IMG/VR virus record: IMGVR_UViG_3300045921_000146
Location: 33,515 to 97,514 of that record
From: a virus
Direction: 5' to 3' (one strand)
DNA length: 64,000 bases
How positions within the stretch are numbered: position 1 is the stretch's first letter; each line of letters starts with the position of its first letter. Position numbers and translations under genes: made by a program. The notes beneath the pieces are model-generated. The model was given only the letters and a program-made list of their open reading frames with translations. It had not been told where the DNA came from and ran no database searches. Below are positions 4,258 to 25,119 of this stretch, in pieces.

Positions 4258-7200
4258 TTAGCCTCCTGTCTTGGCTGCGTACTTAGACTTTAGATACTCC
4301 TTCTCCTCTTTTTGCCCTCTAGTCTCTTCATATAGAGCCAGCTCATCTTCATCCATGTCTCTAATAATACCTTTAGAACCATCCCAATGCAAAACTTGCT
4401 CTAATTGTTGCCCCATACGGTTTTTAGCTAGGTAAAGTCGCATAACATCGTCTCGTACAGGGTCGCCCTCAAAAGGCCGCCACACAGTAACCACATTCGT
4501 TGCAGACTCTTCCCAGTCTCCAGACTCCTTAGCGGCTCTCTTAGTTCTTAGAGGAGTACAACTGTCCCCTACTTGGCGAGATACTTGAGAGATATACAAC
4601 CAAGCAGCATTAGTGTCCACAGCTACTCCAGTAGAGCCTAGAGCGTTAGCTCTGGCCTGAGAGTAGGAATCCTTAAACTCCCCAGTAATACGAGAAGCAT
4701 AGTCTACTAGCACTAATTTTACATCTACACCATTCTTATCTTGAATGTCTAGTACCTTGTCTCGCATTTGTTGAAGGGTCAACGTACTATTAAAGTCAAA
4801 GAACGTCATTCCGTATTTTTCAGCAATAACGGCTCGAATTTCATCCATCTTGTCTTTCTGTCTAGTTTGAAAGATATGAAGAATCTGTTTTTGGCTATAG
4901 TTAGTCAACTTTTGAGCTAATTTTAGGTACACAAGATTTTGATGCATATCTAAACTAAAAAATACGGTATGTTGACCTAGAGCATTGGCTCTTTCCATTA
5001 TATTTAGCCCTAGAGTAGTCTTACCACTATTATGAGTTATAGTGAAATCTTCAAGTAGGTATAAATTATCTCCGTCAACGTGGAAACCAAAATACTCTTC
5101 TTGCTCTGCTACTTTGTGTACTTGGAATCCAGTCTTTAAGACATCTTTAGTATGCTGCCGTTTAGTAGCTTTTTTTCTATGCAGCTTAGTAGGTATCTCA
5201 CTAACGTCTCCGCTAATACTGACTTTATAATATAAACCAGATTTACCAGTTTGACTAGATTTCGTACACGGAGTCAAATAAGCGGCGAAACCTAAGCTTC
5301 TGCTCAGAAAAACTATATCTTCAGCTAAAGTTTTTCTTTTTTGAATTATATCAAAGCAATTAGTATTTAAATGTCCATCAGTATCCAATAGACCTGCCAG
5401 CAATTCTAGTCTTTGATGTCTACTAGCCGTCTTAAAATCGTGTGGAATGTGTTTATTATTAACTAGACCATAAAATCTCAAATTATTTAAAAATTTTGCG
5501 GTTTTGCTAGAGACTGAGTAGTTGGTAATTGTATTTTTAACGGGTTGTTCTGCAAACTGTAAACCTTGGGAATGACAGTACTGTTTTACATAGTCTATAA
5601 GTTCTCTGTCTAGGAAAGTAAATGTTGATCCCGAAGAGTGTCCATCTCCCAACCAGATACCTAACATATAAGGGTCTACCTTAAGTTCTTTTTCTGGAAA
5701 ATCTACACCAGTTCTAACTAGTTTTCTACCAGTATTTTTTGAAGTTTGTCTTCGTGCCAACAATTCATTAATAGTTAAATGTTGCCAATTATTGTGCGAG
5801 TTTAAATGACTCAACACATGATTACCATTTACGTAAAATGCGGAGCCTTTTACAGGAGTCACTTTATACATGGCATCTATTCCACGGCAAAGTTGTAATA
5901 CTGTCCTAGGTTTAGAATCTGGCCCCATAAGTTTGTCATTAATTTCAATGTCCTCTACTTTCTTAATTGTACCATCGTACATCAAAACTTTCTCACCTTT
6001 TCGATGGCAGCCCGATGCTCCCACAATAAGAGTAGTAGTGCCTACGGAAATATTCATATTCTTATCAATAAACTCAATACCTGTTCTAACACTATTGCGA
6101 TCAAAATTTTCTGCGAAGTTTCTGAAGTTATCAAAAACATCACTAATTTGAACAGGTTCGTCTCTTTTAGTAGACGACGTGTGTAGGGAGCATTTTTTTT
6201 CAGTAAATCGGTCACAGGCTAGGCAGTATTTCTTCAAAAGAGAGTTTTCGGCATCTGTGCCTGTAGCTCCAGGTACTTGTTTCCAAGTATCACTATAAAC
6301 GCTATTAATTACCGTATTCCATATTTCTTCTTTCGTGACTGGACCTGACTCAGGGTATAATCTAAAGTTTTCTCTAGCAACACCTTTAAGAGTGTTGTAG
6401 CAGACTTCTTTAGTCATACCTTGATTGCGATAGTAAGCCGCTAAACGAAAGAACAAGTGATTTCTTTCTCCTGGAGCCATAACTCCATGAGACAGCGCAT
6501 AAAGGCATCTAGGCATACCTTTGGGCATTTTAGAAAAGTCAATCTGATCTAGTCCTCTAATTCCATCGACATCTTCTACATCAACTTCTACTGGTTTAGC
6601 TAGGGGCGAAAAACTGCCTTCGTACTTCTTTAGGAAGTCTAAATTTTTTACTGGAGTAAGTTCATACTCTGGATATTCTACTGGAGTTTTAGCTTTATCT
6701 CTAATTTGTTCTACAGAGAGATTAAGAATGTCGTCTGGAGAAATTTCAATTTTATACAATCCAGACTCTTGGTGTTTAGTATTAACTAAACGGATAAGTC
6801 TGGTAGTATTATAGACTGAGGTATCAAAAGTTTTTAAATCTACAGCAAGATTAGCGCATATAGGTTTAAGTTCTTCTGGTTTGAAGTGTCGGTCTACTAA
6901 GACTTCTACATGAAAACCTTTATTGCCGGAAAAGAACACTCGGCAAGAATTAGCTACATCAACACCCTCATTAGCCAGCCTTTCAAGTAAAGTGCAAGCG
7001 TCATCTTTAGCTTGTTCAGGGTCTAATTTGCTATCGAAGTCAAAAAGAAGTCTGTTAGTGTAAGCAGACCCCTTATAACCTTTCATGGACTGATGCGTGT
7101 CCCAGTGAGTTTTTGCGTCAGATCCGTAGTAGTAGAGTGAAGAGTACCAATCTTTATTAGTGTTTCCGATCTTTTGTAATAGCTTATCTTTTTTCCTGAT

Positions 7201-7308
7201 TACGTCTACTTCTACCAGCTCACCTTTAGTTGAAACTGTTTCACATAGACGAACCCAAAAAGGACCATTCAAGGCTTCGTTTTGTTGACTGACTTGCATA
7301 CTCTTCAC
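4258..7308 (-). CDS. AEP-type primase fused to DnaB-like helicase, interrupted by an intein
   Basis: LLFDFD and FFSGNKGFH (AEP motifs); PriCT-like GERNHLFFRLA; split Walker A GASG/SGKTT; LVDY Walker B; LAKNRMG. Confidence 0.9.
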   Translation of the reverse strand: MKSMQVSQQNEALNGPFWVRLCETVSTKGELVEVDVIRKKDKLLQKIGNTNKDWYSSLYYYGSDAKTHWDTHQSMKGYKGSAYTNRLLFDFDSKLDPEQAKDDACTLLERLANEGVDVANSCRVFFSGNKGFHVEVLVDRHFKPEELKPICANLAVDLKTFDTSVYNTTRLIRLVNTKHQESGLYKIEISPDDILNLSVEQIRDKAKTPVEYPEYELTPVKNLDFLKKYEGSFSPLAKPVEVDVEDVDGIRGLDQIDFSKMPKGMPRCLYALSHGVMAPGERNHLFFRLAAYYRNQGMTKEVCYNTLKGVARENFRLYPESGPVTKEEIWNTVINSVYSDTWKQVPGATGTDAENSLLKKYCLACDRFTEKKCSLHTSSTKRDEPVQISDVFDNFRNFAENFDRNSVRTGIEFIDKNMNISVGTTTLIVGASGCHRKGEKVLMYDGTIKKVEDIEINDKLMGPDSKPRTVLQLCRGIDAMYKVTPVKGSAFYVNGNHVLSHLNSHNNWQHLTINELLARRQTSKNTGRKLVRTGVDFPEKELKVDPYMLGIWLGDGHSSGSTFTFLDRELIDYVKQYCHSQGLQFAEQPVKNTITNYSVSSKTAKFLNNLRFYGLVNNKHIPHDFKTASRHQRLELLAGLLDTDGHLNTNCFDIIQKRKTLAEDIVFLSRSLGFAAYLTPCTKSSQTGKSGLYYKVSISGDVSEIPTKLHRKKATKRQHTKDVLKTGFQVHKVAEQEEYFGFHVDGDNLYLLEDFTITHNSGKTTLGLNIMERANALGQHTVFFSLDMHQNLVYLKLAQKLTNYSQKQILHIFQTRQKDKMDEIRAVIAEKYGMTFFDFNSTLTLQQMRDKVLDIQDKNGVDVKLVLVDYASRITGEFKDSYSQARANALGSTGVAVDTNAAWLYISQVSRQVGDSCTPLRTKRAAKESGDWEESATNVVTVWRPFEGDPVRDDVMRLYLAKNRMGQQLEQVLHWDGSKGIIRDMDEDELALYEETRGQKEEKEYLKSKYAAKTGG
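5029..6009 (-). mobile_element. Intein (327 aa) with LAGLIDADG homing endonuclease, inserted in helicase P-loop
   Basis: Starts CHRKGEKVLMYDG, ends DFTITHN followed by Ser; internal LGIWLGDG and LAGLLDTDG blocks. Confidence 0.95.
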
Positions 7309-13998: not shown

Positions 13999-15393
13999 CT
14001 ACCTACGGACTTTTTTAGTTACTTCAATCTCTGTTTTAGATCCCCAAGACCAATTAAAGTTTTTAGCATAACTTTTTAGCACAGCCCACATAACAGGATA
14101 ACGAGGCTTTTCAATATCTGAAGAAGACTCCCAACATCCGCCGTCAGTTAAATAGATTAAGCCATCGACGTCCATTTTGTTATTTTTAATGTGCTCGAAC
14201 ACTGGAGCAAATCGAGTGCCTCCTCTACCTTTAACTTGAATTTTCTTTCTTGGGTCAAAATCGTAAACAGCTTGGACTTCTGCGTCACACTCAATAACAG
14301 TAACTTTAACATTTAATTTATGGATTCTATCAATTTCAGCGATGAATTGAGCCAACTCTTCGTCATTTACTGAGCCTGAAGTGTCGATAGCGACTGCTAG
14401 GTGCATTACTGGTAATTTTTGTAGTCCTGGGTAAAGGATACCGTACCTACGATTTCTACGTTTTCTGGTAGACTCTACGAGTATTTCAATTTGTCTAGCT
14501 ACAAATCTTTGCAAGTCTTGTCTCCAGTCTTTGGGTACATGATTAAGAGCTTCTATAGCAGCTTGAACATCGGCAGGTAAATTTCCAATAGCTCTCTGGT
14601 CAGTTTGCTCTACAGCCTTATTAACTACTTCTTTTACTTTTGCTGTAATTTCTTCTTCGCTAGCGTTACCTTGGTGCCACATACTATGGTCGTCAAGTAA
14701 CATACCTTGACCTTGACCACTTTGAGGATTTTTTTCATTTTCTTGACACAAAATCTCATAATAGTACTCAGTGTTTTGTCTGTTCTTAACGCCCTTGATC
14801 TGTTTCTTAAGTTCATCAACTAAAAGGCAGCCAGTTTGAATAGCTTTTCCAGCATTAGGATTAGCTATTTTTTTTGTCGGGTCTTTGGGGTCTTGCATTT
14901 CTTTGTCGTGAACTATAGGATTGCCTTCTTTGTCGAAAATTTTAAAATTCTTAGGTAAATTTGGCAAGTACTCATTGATTGCATAATCTGCCGCTTTATT
15001 AAGCGTACTAGCGTTCATAGCATCTTCAATTTTACTACTGATAGATTTAGGATTTTTCTCATCATAAATTTGCGGCTCTAGGTCTCGAAAACGGACAAAA
15101 TGGTTCATAATTACATGGTGACATTCGTGTTTCAATACTTCTACTCTTTCTTTTAATGTCAATGAACAAAAGAAGTAGGGATTAACAATAAGCGCAATCT
15201 GGTCTCCAGACATTTCCGTACCTGGAGGCATAACTCCTAAAGTGGGAATATCAGTAGTGAACATTCTTTTCATATTAAGCATTAAGTTAGCATAAAAAGG
15301 CTCAGAAAATACCAACTCCATCATAGTCTCTTCAAGAACGTCTTGTGGGTCTTGCTTAATGTCTTGTTCTTCTACTTTCTTTTTCTTTGCCAC
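13999..15393 (-). CDS. HExxH metallopeptidase plus vWA domain protein (DUF2201-like)
   Basis: LKHECHH, NKAADYAIN, MIDAS AIDTSGS, GRGGTRF, YLTDG. Confidence 0.85.
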   Translation of the reverse strand: MAKKKKVEEQDIKQDPQDVLEETMMELVFSEPFYANLMLNMKRMFTTDIPTLGVMPPGTEMSGDQIALIVNPYFFCSLTLKERVEVLKHECHHVIMNHFVRFRDLEPQIYDEKNPKSISSKIEDAMNASTLNKAADYAINEYLPNLPKNFKIFDKEGNPIVHDKEMQDPKDPTKKIANPNAGKAIQTGCLLVDELKKQIKGVKNRQNTEYYYEILCQENEKNPQSGQGQGMLLDDHSMWHQGNASEEEITAKVKEVVNKAVEQTDQRAIGNLPADVQAAIEALNHVPKDWRQDLQRFVARQIEILVESTRKRRNRRYGILYPGLQKLPVMHLAVAIDTSGSVNDEELAQFIAEIDRIHKLNVKVTVIECDAEVQAVYDFDPRKKIQVKGRGGTRFAPVFEHIKNNKMDVDGLIYLTDGGCWESSSDIEKPRYPVMWAVLKSYAKNFNWSWGSKTEIEVTKKVRR

Positions 15394-15421
15394 AAATCCT
15401 CCCAGATTGGCATTTTATTTC

Positions 15422-15450
15422 AATATAAACCCTTTTCTAAAAATTGTCAA
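15422..15450 (-). promoter_or_regulatory. sigma70-type promoter for the vWA gene and downstream operon
   Basis: TTGACA-17 nt-TATATT on minus strand. Confidence 0.65.
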
Positions 15451-15477
15451 ATTAGGCGGCCACATTAGGCCGCCCTC
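15451..15477 (-). terminator. stem-loop after the AAA+ gene
   Basis: GGCGGCC-taatgt-GGCCGCC hairpin, short T run. Confidence 0.5.
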
Positions 15478-15482
15478 AATAA

Positions 15483-16571
15483 TTAATTAATACCTTCAAT
15501 TTCCAATTTACGAGCATCAGCAAACAATTTAAGAAGTTCTTTGCTTTCTTCAATAACTTTGCGTGCAGACTCTTCCATGTAAAGTTCACGGCACAAGGCG
15601 AAAGCTAAATCTTTGGGGATAGCCAACAAGAATTGTCCCAAATTATCTTTTTCTGAAGCTTCAAACTGTTTACCGTTTTGAGTGTACTGTTGAGCCAACT
15701 CAAGAATAGAGTCGCTAGTATATTTAAGCATATCAATACGACCTCCAGTTTTAGCGTTAGAATACTTTTTAATGCGAGCCTTCACATTTTCAAAATTTTC
15801 CACGACTTCTCTAGCCGTGATAGGTTTGTCTTCGCTTTCCAAAGATTTAAGGTATGCTGTGCCAGCCGTTGTGCCTACAAGTCCGCAAATAAGGTCTCTA
15901 CGCAAGTGGACAGGCAGTTTGGCCTTCATAAGCTTGTCTACAGCCTCCCAAGACCGACGAGAAGGGGTCACGCCAAGGTCGTAGGCTTCCAACTCTCCCT
16001 GAAGCATTGCAGGTTGTTCAGAAATGAACTGCACGATAGAAGGGTCAAAACCTTTCTTTTTTGCGTAAGAAAGCCACTCTGTTTTGGAGGGAGCCAATTT
16101 AATCTGACAAAAGCGATCCAAAAAAGCTCGGTCAGAAATATCTGTTACTACATAGTCTTGGGTAGAAGGGTTGGCCGCAGCAATAACTGACCAACCTTTA
16201 GGCAACTTATATTCGTGAAGGCGTTTATCCAATACCAGTTGAAATACAGCTTGCAATACGTCACGGCGGCCACGGTTGATTTCATCAAGAAAAATAACAC
16301 CTTGCGACTCTGGGTCTGTAGGAAACCAAGTAGGCTGCATGAATTTAGTAGCTACTTTTTCTCCTCGCTCATTGACTTTAAAGTCGGCAAGACCTAACAA
16401 GTCTCCAACGTCTTGAGTACCAAGGCGCAAGTCAACAAAGCCTAGTTGATTTTCGTCGCAATACTGCCGAACAGCTTGAGACTTACCCACTCCATGATGC
16501 CCCCATACCAGTACAGCTACTCCAGTTTCTCGGATGAAAGGCAAGCTTTCTTTAAATTGGTTGATATTCAT
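15483..16571 (-). CDS. MoxR-like AAA+ ATPase
   Basis: WGHHGVGKS, DLLGL, IFLDEINR, AAANP, AFLDRF, PSRRSW. Confidence 0.9.
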   Translation of the reverse strand: MNINQFKESLPFIRETGVAVLVWGHHGVGKSQAVRQYCDENQLGFVDLRLGTQDVGDLLGLADFKVNERGEKVATKFMQPTWFPTDPESQGVIFLDEINRGRRDVLQAVFQLVLDKRLHEYKLPKGWSVIAAANPSTQDYVVTDISDRAFLDRFCQIKLAPSKTEWLSYAKKKGFDPSIVQFISEQPAMLQGELEAYDLGVTPSRRSWEAVDKLMKAKLPVHLRRDLICGLVGTTAGTAYLKSLESEDKPITAREVVENFENVKARIKKYSNAKTGGRIDMLKYTSDSILELAQQYTQNGKQFEASEKDNLGQFLLAIPKDLAFALCRELYMEESARKVIEESKELLKLFADARKLEIEGIN

Positions 16572-22544: not shown

Positions 22545-23012
22545 CTAACGCCAATAGCTTCGATATGACTCCCAATATTTGTCTAAACAGTAGGGCACTG
22601 TCAACATTGAGAACATTAAATTCTGAGGGCAGCCGTCTGGCCGCAAGTCTTCGATATGATAAGGGATTTTAAACTCACAATGGATTAGTTCGTGGTAAAT
22701 TAAAGCCAAACGACTTTGAGTACTCATATAAATCCATTTATTTTCAAGCACTTCCACTTCTGTAAAAGTTTTAGTCGTTACAAAAGGCTGTATTCCTTTC
22801 TTAGCAGTCCAAACTCTACATTGCGCCAGCCTCCTATTCGGTAGGCTTTTAACGAAATTCACTGAGCTACTAACTGTTACGCCGTAATACGCTTCAAAAT
22901 CAGCTACGTAAGGTTTTAAGCTTGGGGCTATACCTACCTGGCCTCTAGGGTCAGGAAACGAACCGCAAGCCGTTAAAAGCGTTAAAAAGGCTAAAAGCGA
23001 CCACTTATTCAT
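22545..23012 (-). CDS. lipoprotein zinc metallopeptidase
   Basis: Lipobox LTAC; YHELIHC (HExxH), downstream H and LM Met-turn-like motif. Confidence 0.7.
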   Translation of the reverse strand: MNKWSLLAFLTLLTACGSFPDPRGQVGIAPSLKPYVADFEAYYGVTVSSSVNFVKSLPNRRLAQCRVWTAKKGIQPFVTTKTFTEVEVLENKWIYMSTQSRLALIYHELIHCEFKIPYHIEDLRPDGCPQNLMFSMLTVPYCLDKYWESYRSYWR

Positions 23013-23505: not shown

Positions 23506-23652
23506 TTAAACACTCAAAACGTAGTAATAAAGTGGAGAATAAAGCGTTAAACGGACTAAGTTGTTGAATACTTTGTCCCCTCTACGTTCTGAAAGGGCTA
23601 TAAATAGGCCAAAAAAGTGTAGGGCGATTAAAATACCTACGTAAGTTGCCAT
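23506..23652 (-). CDS. 48-aa membrane protein
   Basis: Not in track; GGAGG RBS; MATYVGILIALHFFGLFIAL... Confidence 0.5.
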   Translation of the reverse strand: MATYVGILIALHFFGLFIALSERRGDKVFNNLVRLTLYSPLYYYVLSV

Positions 23653-23809: not shown

Positions 23810-24060
23810 CCCCCAGCTCTAAATGGCGGCCACCTTAACCTCAGTAAAGCGTATAACTTTTATAAATTGTATATTTTGTAAACACTTAATAGGCTTTTAT
23901 GATGATCTATATAGCATCGTATACCAATTGTCCAGCCTAGTAAAAAAACTTATGCTACCTAAATAAATTATAAACTTTAATATAGGGGTCAAAACGTATT
24001 TAACGAAAGCTAAAGTAATAACAAAATTAGCTAACAGTTGTTGGATTAAATTAAAGTTGC

Positions 24061-24273
24061 TCATTCAATGCCCCTACTTAATTTATTTTTTTTACCAAAT
24101 CTAGAGCTAGAATTAACTCCCGATTTAGAATTAAACATTGTAATACTCCCAAACAAAGACCTAGACGCACAAATAGACCAAGATTTATAGGTAGTTATGG
24201 ACCTTGGTTTAACTCCAGTTTTAGATTTATAATTTGAATACATATATTGTGGTAGTTTATTATAGTAGTTCAT
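24061..24273 (-). CDS. Ser-rich peptide, copy 3 (degenerate)
   Basis: Start revised to ATG 24273: MNYYNKLPQYMYS... Confidence 0.6.
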   Translation of the reverse strand: MNYYNKLPQYMYSNYKSKTGVKPRSITTYKSWSICASRSLFGSITMFNSKSGVNSSSRFGKKNKLSRGIE

Positions 24274-24274
24274 A

Positions 24275-24475
24275 CTACTTACTTTCCTTACCAGACCTAG
24301 ACCTAGAACCAAACCTAGAACCAGACCAATAATTAGACCAAGAACTAGACCAAGAACTAGACCGAGGCCTAGACCAAGAACTAGACCGAGGCCTAGACCC
24401 AGAACTAGACCCAGACTCAGACCTAGACCTAGAACCTTGATATAACCAATTTGGTAGCTTATTGTAGTAGCTCAT
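24275..24475 (-). CDS. (Ser-X)n repeat peptide, copy 2
   Basis: MSYYNKLPNWLYQGS + SRSESGSSSGSRPRSSSW... + SGKESK. Confidence 0.7.
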   Translation of the reverse strand: MSYYNKLPNWLYQGSRSRSESGSSSGSRPRSSSWSRPRSSSWSSSWSNYWSGSRFGSRSRSGKESK

Positions 24476-24476
24476 A

Positions 24477-24668
24477 CTATCTAGTTTCCTTACCAGACCT
24501 AGAAATAGACCAAGAACTAAACCGAGACCTAGACCCAGACTCAGACCAGCAAGACATAGGCCAAGAGCCAGACCCAGACCCAGACCAAAACCCAGACCAA
24601 GACCTAGACCTAAAACCAGACTTAGAACCTTGATATACCCAACTTGGTAGTTTATTATAGTAGTTCAC
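24477..24668 (-). CDS. (Ser-X)n repeat peptide, copy 1
   Basis: GTG start; MNYYNKLPSWVYQGS + SRSWSGFWSGSGSGSW... + SGKETR. Confidence 0.65.
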   Translation of the reverse strand: MNYYNKLPSWVYQGSKSGFRSRSWSGFWSGSGSGSWPMSCWSESGSRSRFSSWSISRSGKETR

Positions 24669-24679
24669 AGTTTAGTAGC

Positions 24680-24712
24680 CTTTTAAATAGGCCCTAGTTT
24701 AGGCTAGGGCCA
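24680..24712 (-). terminator. stem-loop between the DUF6948-like gene and the peptide array
   Basis: GGCCCTAG-6 nt-CTAGGGCC followed by TATTT. Confidence 0.45.
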
Positions 24713-24717
24713 GTTGT

Positions 24718-24996
24718 TTAAATAGTAGGCACCAAGCAAATGTCCATAATAAAGCCCGTGTTCTTAAATTCTTTAATGGTCTCAGGGTAAGCCTCGGCCT
24801 CTTTAACGAACTTTTGGGGGTTGGTGAAAAACTGGTGGAGGTCTCCAGTTTGCCCTACCCACTTTACTCCAGTTAAAACTATGTAGCTTTCTTGTACTTC
24901 TAGTAGCGTGCCTAGGTAGTAGTAAGTTGGAGTTCTAACGAAAACTTTAGCTCCTACCTCGAAAACCTGGGCGGCCATACCTACCTTTAAATTCAT
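24718..24996 (-). CDS. DUF6948-like small beta-barrel protein
   Basis: VGAKVFVRTPTYYYLGTL...IVL....WV..TG.L pattern; AGGAGG RBS. Confidence 0.6.
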   Translation of the reverse strand: MNLKVGMAAQVFEVGAKVFVRTPTYYYLGTLLEVQESYIVLTGVKWVGQTGDLHQFFTNPQKFVKEAEAYPETIKEFKNTGFIMDICLVPTI

Positions 24997-25119
24997 AAAT
25001 CCTCCTATAGTGTATAAGTTAGTTAGTATATAAGTTAGTTATAGTTAATTAAAGTTTTAAAACTCCTACCCCTTTTTATAATATATAAATAAAGGGAGTA
25101 GAAGAGGTTACCCTTTGAC

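Follow-up and report, generated by a model that had tools for sequence, protein, structure and literature searches.

Do the four small open reading frames (ORFs) crowded into positions 24061-24996 of a 64-kb stretch of phage DNA form a real genetic module, and if so, what would their products do? The stretch (hereafter the window) comes from a 97.5-kb IMG/VR phage record, IMGVR_UViG_3300045921_000146, that is 85% complete. A preliminary description of the locus, made from the letters alone, had proposed a two-component module in which a small β-barrel protein is encoded ahead of three tandem peptides that share a conserved leader followed by Ser-X repeats. We confirmed the observation and found that all features of the barrel gene and of the three peptide genes lie on the minus strand of the window. 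The proposal of a real module was borne out by a reciprocal association between barrel genes and Ser-X genes in other phages. We conclude with high confidence that the window module is a divergent, partly decayed lineage of a widespread, unnamed cassette that encodes an Sm-like protein together with one to ten leader-(Ser-Arg/Gly/Trp)n peptides, and that its four co-oriented genes are co-transcribed.

An Sm-like protein paired with Ser-X peptides

The barrel protein of the window, P0001, had no Pfam match at E ≤ 1 (including LSM, PF01423) and no PHROG match. None of 53 family members tested was assigned to any Pfam family, a sequence search of the PDB with the family profile gave no match at E ≤ 1, and in the ESM Atlas the barrel fell into unnamed viral clusters only. 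Its close relatives are 72-85% identical to it. A profile of P0001 and these relatives recovered 141 further, more distant proteins at E ≤ 1e-3 among 1.8 billion (the best at 4e-10), and tblastn of P0001 against 80 viral loci confirmed family membership, with E values down to 7e-13. Searches of viral and metagenome contigs with P0001 itself, or with the alignment of its close relatives (A1), found no related loci.

An AlphaFold (AF2) model of P0001 built from a 53-sequence alignment (predicted local distance difference test score 89) has an N-terminal helix followed by a strongly bent five-stranded sheet. The top 45 rows of a structural search with this model (VIA) were all Sm, LSm, or Hfq proteins (Z 9.6-6.5), the best match being 5vsu_F (Z 9.6, root-mean-square deviation 1.9 Å over 73 residues), and the top rows of a Foldseek search were Sm/LSm proteins at E 2e-3. 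Peptide-binding LSm domains, those of Edc3 and LSm14 (6f9w, 6am0, 2vc8, and 2rm4), rank among the best matches. From the model we are confident in predicting that P0001 is an Sm-like protein with an Sm/LSm fold. Its isoelectric point (pI) is 5.7; the family as a whole has a median pI of 5.4, and 80% of its members are net negative. Tandem double-barrel relatives (P0016, P0049, P0052, P0057, and P0079) suggest that barrels at least contact one another. Most family members (for example, P0085, P0065, and P0066) also carry a 20-40-residue N-terminal extension with a D-L-T-I-G-E-L-K-E-I-like helix, which resembles a helix-extension-helix/Rho_N-type motif; the window barrel lacks this extension.

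The preliminary description had called the barrel gene DUF6948-like. Searches with hidden Markov models (HMMs) did not uphold this assignment: PF22253 gave no match at E ≤ 1 in the whole 97.5-kb record, although another phage (G001) matched it at 4.4e-14, and none of 53 family members matched it at E ≤ 0.01. The sole link is weak similarity at the level of profiles (hhalign of the family alignment A4 against one DUF6948 protein, E 0.003, probability 10.6%; DUF6948 rows in a BFVD search, E 0.04-0.15; an ESM Atlas feature score of 0.82), and it is possible that the window barrel and DUF6948 are distant relatives.

The translations of the three tandem ORFs behind the barrel gene all open with M(N/S)YYNKLPx(W/Y)xY, as had been described. 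The first 8 residues are identical save for N or S at position 2, and the YYNKLP codons of copies 1 and 2 differ by two synonymous changes only (TAT/TAC and AAA/AAG); the cores of the three copies fall to 39-60% identity while the leader stays conserved. Copies 1 and 2 both finish with SRSGKE(T/S)(R/K), and the account of these ends as the source of the next ribosome-binding site also held: AAGGAA lies in the last codons of each, ~10 nt from the following ATG, with TAG-T-ATG coupling at both junctions. The tails of these two copies are indeed Ser-X tails built from TCTNGG hexamers, but their alternation is not strict, because Ser occupies 21 of 26 alternate positions in copy 2 and copy 1 undergoes a 3-nt register shift after Cys40. 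Similarly, R, G, W, and S do not complete the list of residues at X, where E, N, K, F, P, M, C, and I also occur. In-frame TCTNGG units number 11 in copy 1 (which has 18 TCT Ser codons), 12 in copy 2, and 2 in copy 3, the copy that had been correctly described as keeping the leader on a diverged core. The core of copy 3 is still basic, Ser-rich, and aromatic, with Lys, Tyr, and Phe replacing Arg and Trp, and a 70-aa protein from an independent assembly (P0010) is 97% identical to it.

The TCTNGG/Ser-X feature is far beyond chance expectation: the minus strand of the 64-kb window has 69 TCTNGG hexamers, of which 25 sit in the 608 bp of the peptide genes, and no further ORF on either strand of the window scored in a measure of Ser alternation. 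Tandem Repeats Finder reported arrays of period 12/24 at 24293-24433 and 24492-24621, with 5.9 copies of a period-24 unit in copy 2. A blastn match between the array and Synechococcus phage S-SCSM1 was rejected as a low-complexity match inside a 2600-aa virion protein. Neighborhood conservation within the window's own lineage comes from two proteins, the peptide relative P0015 and the barrel relative P0013, each from a 9651-bp contig. P0015 starts with MSYYNKLPQYLY and continues into a Ser-X core unlike those of the window, so that the leader is conserved at the amino acid level, as had been anticipated. A degenerate DNA pattern for the MxYYNKLP leader found two chance matches and nothing else among viral contigs, and a query of the ESM Atlas with the peptide gave nothing usable. 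The peptides are small, strongly basic, and probably disordered, with a conserved 12-14-residue leader and a low-complexity tail.

We then asked how general the pairing is. The loci total 110, made up of 80 viral loci found through the family alignment, 29 contigs of metagenome-assembled genomes (MAGs), and the window; in ~90% of those that have enough downstream DNA, there is a gene for a leader followed by (Ser-Arg/Gly/Trp)n. A strong Ser-X ORF is present on the barrel strand in 68 of 81 loci (the 80 viral loci and the window), and in 10 of the 13 loci that have none the contig stops within 500 nt downstream of the barrel match. The independent MAG set gave a strong Ser-X ORF in 22 of 29 loci and a weaker one in 3 more. 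Many of the MAG contigs are phage-sized (35-47 kb), and a few matches are prophage-like, inside long contigs of several phyla (Acidimicrobiia, Chlorobiota, and Solirubrobacterales). In the reverse test, a DNA-only pattern, (TCGNGG)6, matched at least 120 loci in viral contigs, 84 of which had enough upstream sequence; among the matches listed, the barrel was found within 900 nt upstream of 61 of the 84 arrays and elsewhere in the locus for 7 more (~80%). Co-occurrence with the upstream gene, which the preliminary description had predicted, thus holds in both directions.

The two genes are also tightly arranged. In 63 of 71 loci, no more than 30 nt separate the peptide start from the barrel stop, and 38 of the 71 have the two codons overlapping as ATGA, an arrangement that is common but not universal. 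Because of this overlap, leader residue 2 is almost always N, T, K, or S, whose codons all have A as the first base. Of the 68 peptide-bearing loci, 17 (the window and 16 of 67 fetched loci) have multiple peptide genes, with up to ten per locus. The common leader is M-N-Q/A-A-I/L-L-R-x-G-F/Y-D/E-x, of which the YYNKLP leader of the window is a lineage variant. Asp or Glu is frequent near the end of the canonical leader, and leaders are uniform inside a genome and different between lineages; a distinct, basic class of 9-10 residues, M-R-S-x-K-Q-K-Y/F-R, occurs in L116, L139, L162, L177, L193, L197, and L228. The window departs from the family norm in its 49-nt hairpin spacer, its variant leader, its degenerate arrays, and its non-periodic third copy. 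NGG makes up 14 of 49 core codons in copy 1 and 15 of 52 in copy 2, and typical family arrays have 85-100% NGG at X; by this comparison the window arrays appear degenerate relative to the family.

The arrays turn over rapidly. The slippage-type variability that had been suggested for the cores was seen between near-identical phages: L019 and L020 are identical across a 3.3-kb flank and differ inside the array only, by unit insertions and deletions and two first-base changes. Ser-X cores have a median net charge of +9 and are composed of 48% S, 17.5% R, 14% G, and 13% W, and the acidic barrel and the basic cores are therefore charge-complementary. Copy 3, which is non-periodic yet basic and 97% conserved in P0010, suggests that composition weighs more than periodicity. 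Many metagenomic contigs end in or at an array (L005, L013, L032-L034, L040, L051, L052, L066, L080, and many of L115-L234), the cause being the repeats or else heterogeneity of the population. As contigs break at arrays, the module is probably under-counted, and assembled array lengths are unreliable.

A full-text literature search found no paper on the module, and Pfam, PHROGs, PADLOC, and Rfam held nothing for the barrel, the peptides, or the region. Among GenBank phages there was one barrel relative only, in a metagenomic record (MW202573.1), and no cultured phage carrying the cassette.

The preliminary description had stated that DUF6948-like genes often neighbor dipeptide-repeat ORFs in phages. 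Such a link does exist: we surveyed 26 loci around one DUF6948 protein, and in ~15 of them the gene is directly followed by a Gly-(Tyr/Ser/Asp/Asn) repeat ORF. In this sister cassette (L114:1483-2015, which equals L240; L236-L239, L244, L245, L249, L250, L253, and L257), the DUF6948 gene is followed by a peptide gene, often ATGA-overlapping, that encodes a leader M-S-N-I/V-I-D-G and a (Gly-Tyr/Ser/Asp/Asn)n tail. It resembles the Ser-X cassette in its small barrel gene, frequent ATGA overlap, short leader, and dipeptide repeat, but its peptide is Gly-X and not basic, and the codons are mixed. Phage L114 carries both cassettes, the sister cassette lying 300 nt downstream of a canonical Sm-like and Ser-X cassette.

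Codon usage in the arrays and leaders

We analyzed codon usage in 87 non-identical arrays. Within an array, Ser is encoded by essentially one codon (TCG in 41 arrays, AGC in 17, TCA in 13, TCT in 12, and AGT in 3), but the arrays together draw on both codon families, TCN and AGY, to maintain Ser, and Ser-X is the sole frame common to all of them. About 85% of X codons are NGG, with a near-random first base: Gly is encoded by GGG 553 times versus 30 for other codons, Arg by CGG 365 times and AGG 357 times versus 57 for others, and Trp by TGG 530 times. X is thus R, G, or W because the X codon is a translated NGG. The leader, unlike the arrays, shows ordinary synonymous spread. In 31 canonical leaders, Arg7 is AGA in 15, CGC in 6, CGG in 4, CGT in 3, CGA in 2, and AGG in 1, and Gly9 is GGC in 13, GGT in 8, GGA in 7, and GGG in 3. 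Judged by their starts, ribosome-binding sites, coupling, leader conservation, and use of both Ser codon families, the peptides look translated.

The array pattern can be read as follows. If unit turnover by slippage greatly outpaces point mutation, all bases of the unit would be homogenized except one, where selection maintains several alternatives. Of all hexamers, only a Ser codon followed by NGG yields Trp, Arg, and Gly through a one-base change, and X would be restricted to these residues because no other unit offers that choice. Trp is present in 113 of 116 arrays, and Arg in 116 of 116.

Several candidate explanations of the array sequence were tried and rejected. Opposite-strand and shifted-frame ORFs over the arrays are open because the hexamer repeats lack stops; they differ by array type and have no conserved starts. 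A two-tetrad G-quadruplex formed from GG-N4 repeats did not appear in a G-quadruplex (G4)-aware minimum-free-energy fold of the window arrays. Mutagenesis of A in AGG codons, of the kind carried out by diversity-generating retroelements, was set aside because the 97.5-kb record has no reverse transcriptase (no PF00078 match at E ≤ 0.01). Rfam had no match for the region.

The window locus and its surroundings

The barrel gene opens a leftward operon, right after a ~1-kb ORF-poor, non-coding divergence region. Between its stop and the start of copy 1 is a 49-nt spacer that contains a hairpin in place of an ATGA overlap (Table 1). The hairpin has a minimum free energy of -17.8 kcal/mol (z -3.1 versus shuffles) and additionally scored as terminator-like for the opposite strand. 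It may be an attenuator or an RNA-stability element, and it may set the barrel:peptide ratio in the window lineage, which is without the usual ATGA overlap.

Table 1. Positions of the module and of other genes discussed, in window coordinates
Feature	Position	Strand	Description
Shine-Dalgarno GGAGGA	25000-25005	-	3 nt ahead of barrel ATG; read directly from the sequence
Sm-fold (barrel) gene, P0001	24718-24996	-	92 aa, acidic/neutral, predicted Sm/LSm fold; ORF and translation
GC-rich 8-bp hairpin	24690-24711	-	GGCCCUAG-N6-CUAGGGCC, then UAUUUAAAA; between barrel stop and copy 1 GTG
Peptide copy 1	24477-24668	-	63 aa from a GTG start; leader MNYYNKLPSWVYQG; Ser-X tail, register shifted once; net charge +7
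AAGGAA ribosome-binding site for copy 2	24486-24491	-	Lys-Glu codons at the end of copy 1; junction TAG-T-ATG
Peptide copy 2	24275-24475	-	66 aa, ATG start, leader MSYYNKLPNWLYQG, Ser-X tail, net charge +10, pI 11.5
AAGGAA ribosome-binding site for copy 3	24284-24289	-	Within the final codons of copy 2; junction TAG-T-ATG
Peptide copy 3	24061-24273	-	70 aa, leader MNYYNKLPQYMY, core not periodic, net charge +12
Downstream ORFs, same operon	22545-23012, 23506-23652, 23897-24064	-	Two small hydrophobic membrane-type ORFs and a 155-aa predicted lipoprotein
DUF2201 and AAA_5 genes	13999-16571	-	Adjacent genes for a VWA-like/metallopeptidase protein and a MoxR-like ATPase
Primase-helicase gene	4258-7308	-	1016 aa, PriCT_1 and DnaB_C, intein at ~residues 434-702

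The window and its record encode a terminase, a DnaB-type primase-helicase, and other phage genes, and the module lies ~9 kb from the terminase, on the opposite strand. The neighbors of the relatives include RecT, ERF, RecA, SSB, gp32, exonucleases, SbcC-like ATPases, VRR-NUC, NinG, YopX, and methylases, which loosely places the cassette in what appear to be early recombination/replication regions. No recurrent modifying enzyme was found among 93 upstream and 72 downstream neighbor ORFs of the relatives. In MW202573.1, the barrel relative is the second ORF of an operon that diverges from a repressor gene.

Some of the window's other genes have features of their own. The predicted lipoprotein downstream of the module combines an LTAC lipobox with a phage metallopeptidase domain (PF18894, E 3e-5). 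The intein of the primase-helicase carries a LAGLIDADG homing endonuclease (Hom_end_hint and Hom_end). The pairing of DUF2201 with AAA_5 is typical of cellular MoxR-VWA systems and is here found in a phage.

What the cassette may do

The explanation that we tentatively favor, although taken as a whole it falls somewhat short of an even chance, is that the cassette makes a hub with cationic arms. The usually acidic Sm-fold protein would oligomerize and dock the conserved leader, a step to which we give about an even chance. The ATGA overlap in most relatives would yield barrel and peptide in coupled amounts. The resulting hub would carry several cationic arms that bind RNA or single-stranded DNA nonspecifically, or condense it, early in infection, which is possible but doubtful. 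Within the arms, Arg and Trp would act as "stickers" and Ser and Gly as "spacers." If composition matters and sequence does not, the hexamer array would therefore be free to expand, contract, and shuffle by slippage. Recognition of the leader by the barrel, which the preliminary description had also proposed, is plausible by analogy; the RS-like (Arg/Ser-like) binder, amyloid, and decoy options that it listed are speculation.

The nearest known systems are analogies and not families. Eukaryotic SmD1, SmD3, SmB, and LSm4 are Sm/LSm proteins with Arg-Gly dipeptide-repeat tails, and they resemble the phage cassette in joining an Sm fold to a basic low-complexity dipeptide repeat. In the phages, however, the repeat is a separate polypeptide with its own leader and is Ser-(Arg/Gly/Trp) rather than Gly-Arg, and the barrel is acidic and fails the LSM HMM. 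The LSm domains of Edc3 and LSm14/Scd6 offer a parallel for a small LSm domain as a putative peptide dock. The docking step of our model was adopted because these domains bind short linear motifs comparably, but the phage barrel has no sequence relationship to them (12-15% identity). C9orf72 poly-GR and poly-PR, the pathological non-AUG products of a human hexanucleotide expansion, bind RNA and ribosomes and drive phase separation. They share with the Ser-X arrays a DNA hexamer repeat that codes for Arg-rich dipeptide repeats, but the Ser-X product comes from an ordinary gene that has a start codon, a leader, and a conserved partner. Among phage proteins, T4 has, in GoF, MotB.1, and Frd.2, small early proteins with a predicted LSm-like fold and a suspected role at the RNA level (PMC12152347). 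By fold description they are like P0001, but no partner repeat peptide is reported for them (PMC12152347).

Several points weigh against the hub-and-arms explanation. Translation, leader-barrel docking, oligomerization, and nucleic acid binding are all predictions. The barrel is acidic and may itself make no contact with RNA, and gene adjacency alone does not prove a physical interaction. The adjacency to recombination genes is loose, each family being found in just 1-3 of ~90 loci. In the window, the barrel and copy 1 genes do not overlap and are separated by the 49-nt hairpin spacer, so that their coupling is unlike the family norm, and the YYNKLP leader is unlike the family consensus M-N-Q/A-A-I/L-L-R-x-G-F/Y-D/E-x. 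Finally, the frozen synonymous sites of the arrays (GGG, CGG, and AGG, and one Ser codon per array) could reflect selection at the nucleotide level.

The alternative that survives best, although we consider it unlikely, is a chaperoned toxic polycation: the Arg/Trp peptides would attack ribosomes or rRNA, the nucleoid, or the membrane, and the acidic Sm-fold protein would use the leader to hold or neutralize them until they are released. Poly-GR/PR peptides bind ribosomes, and Arg/Trp antimicrobial peptides are membrane-active. Charge complementarity and the Arg/Trp-rich composition are as expected for such a system, as are the early-operon position, the tight translational coupling, the multiplicity of peptide genes (17 of 68 peptide-bearing loci, up to ten), and the small membrane-type ORFs and lipoprotein metallopeptidase downstream of the window module. 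However, half of the residues are Ser, which weakens membrane activity, the peptides have no signal peptide or transmembrane segment, and the analysis indicates no target. This alternative also overlaps largely with the hub-and-arms explanation, because it invokes the same barrel-leader docking and differs in the target alone.

The variability of the arrays raises a further alternative, in which a self-diversifying peptide library serves as a counter-defense decoy: the hypervariable arrays would be under arms-race selection, and every phage population would contain many variants, differing in length and sequence, that titrate or evade a sensor of the host, the Sm-fold protein serving as an unchanging adaptor. 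We rate this as distinctly unlikely. Phages that are identical over kilobases elsewhere do differ in their arrays, a single variable position in each hexamer toggles Trp/Arg/Gly, the many contigs that break at the array may reflect population heterogeneity, and the module opens an early operon in the window and, as part of the first gene set, in MW202573. Neutral slippage in a composition-only tail explains the variation equally well, though, and there is no PADLOC or anti-defense family match, and the record lacks a reverse transcriptase; repeats are, moreover, unreliably assembled from metagenomes. The bolder form of the idea, to which we assign the same low probability, is that the cassette generates diversity independently of any retroelement. 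Toggling of the residue at the one free base of each hexamer and reshuffling of the units by slippage would give each phage population a shifting set of polycationic arms attached to an invariant Sm-fold adaptor; the arms would be selected in an arms race with the host, for example by titrating or evading a defense sensor. This form contrasts with drift in a composition-only tail.

T4 internal proteins IPI-III have a conserved ~10-residue N-terminal capsid-targeting leader, a variable basic body, and several paralogs, and the Ser-X peptides are like them in placing a short conserved leader on small, variable, basic proteins with paralogs in a genome. It is conceivable, but very unlikely, that the Ser-X peptides are likewise packaged or injected, with the leader as a capsid-targeting sequence and the basic tails neutralizing capsid DNA or entering the cell with it. 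The strong positive charge and the Asp or Glu often found near the end of the canonical leader are consistent with such a role. Unlike the T4 proteins, however, the phage cassette sits among early recombination/replication genes and not among head genes, the terminase being ~9 kb off and on the other strand, and packaging leaves the constant Sm-fold partner unexplained.

The codon data bear most directly on the possibility that the array functions as nucleic acid, an RNA or DNA element with GG every 6 nt that acts as a sponge or multivalent binding platform for the Sm-like protein, much as CsrB does for CsrA, with translation incidental or secondary. The preference for NGG at X, the near-invariance within each array of the synonymous third positions of Gly, Arg, and Ser beside a near-random first base of X, and the frequency of RNA binding among Sm-fold proteins all favor it. 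Against it, Ser is kept via TCN and AGY and Ser-X is the only shared reading; the start codon, leader, and ATGA coupling are conserved and synonymous variation in the leader is normal; the peptide layout persists in the absence of the hexamer in copy 3 and in the DUF6948 Gly-X cassettes; and the barrel is acidic, the G4-aware fold has no G-quadruplex, and Rfam has no match. We consider a nucleotide-level function less likely than one exerted by the peptides, and very improbable overall.

Least probable of all, and hardly to be expected, is an array of precursors of ribosomally synthesized and post-translationally modified peptides (RiPPs), in which the leader would direct an enzyme to dehydrate, cyclize, phosphorylate, or glycosylate Ser in the core: tandem genes, a conserved leader, and a hypervariable Ser-rich core fit this layout, as had been pointed out, and the environmental glycofibril TLP-2, of unknown source, has a dipeptide-repeat core with a modified Ser in each repeat (bioRxiv 10.1101/2025.09.30.679562), but the non-Ser residue of TLP-2 is modeled as Ala and not as Arg or Trp (bioRxiv 10.1101/2025.09.30.679562), the leader is very short, the constant partner is a ~90-aa Sm-fold protein alone, with no recognized catalytic function, and no modifying enzyme, RiPP recognition element domain, protease, or exporter was recognized among the neighbors in the window or among ~90 upstream and ~70 downstream neighbors of the relatives.

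The pairing of an Sm-like protein with Ser-X peptides is thus widespread in uncultured phages, one array type alone having at least 120 matches in viral contigs, and its inferred hosts belong to many phyla; no description of it was found in Pfam, PHROG, PADLOC, or the literature, nor was any cultured representative. The cassette unites an ancient RNA-world fold, Sm/LSm, with an extreme, fast-evolving dipeptide-repeat microprotein, and the DUF6948 and Gly-X sister cassette is built on the same logic. Repeat ORFs of this type are real genes that are prone to loss by gene callers and assemblers. If the hub-and-arms explanation is true, the cassette would be a phage counterpart of eukaryotic ribonucleoprotein-granule scaffolds and a test bed for sticker-spacer rules, and if the arms-race explanation is true, it would be a new way to generate protein diversity. 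Under either, it offers a tangible way into a large portion of phage "dark matter."

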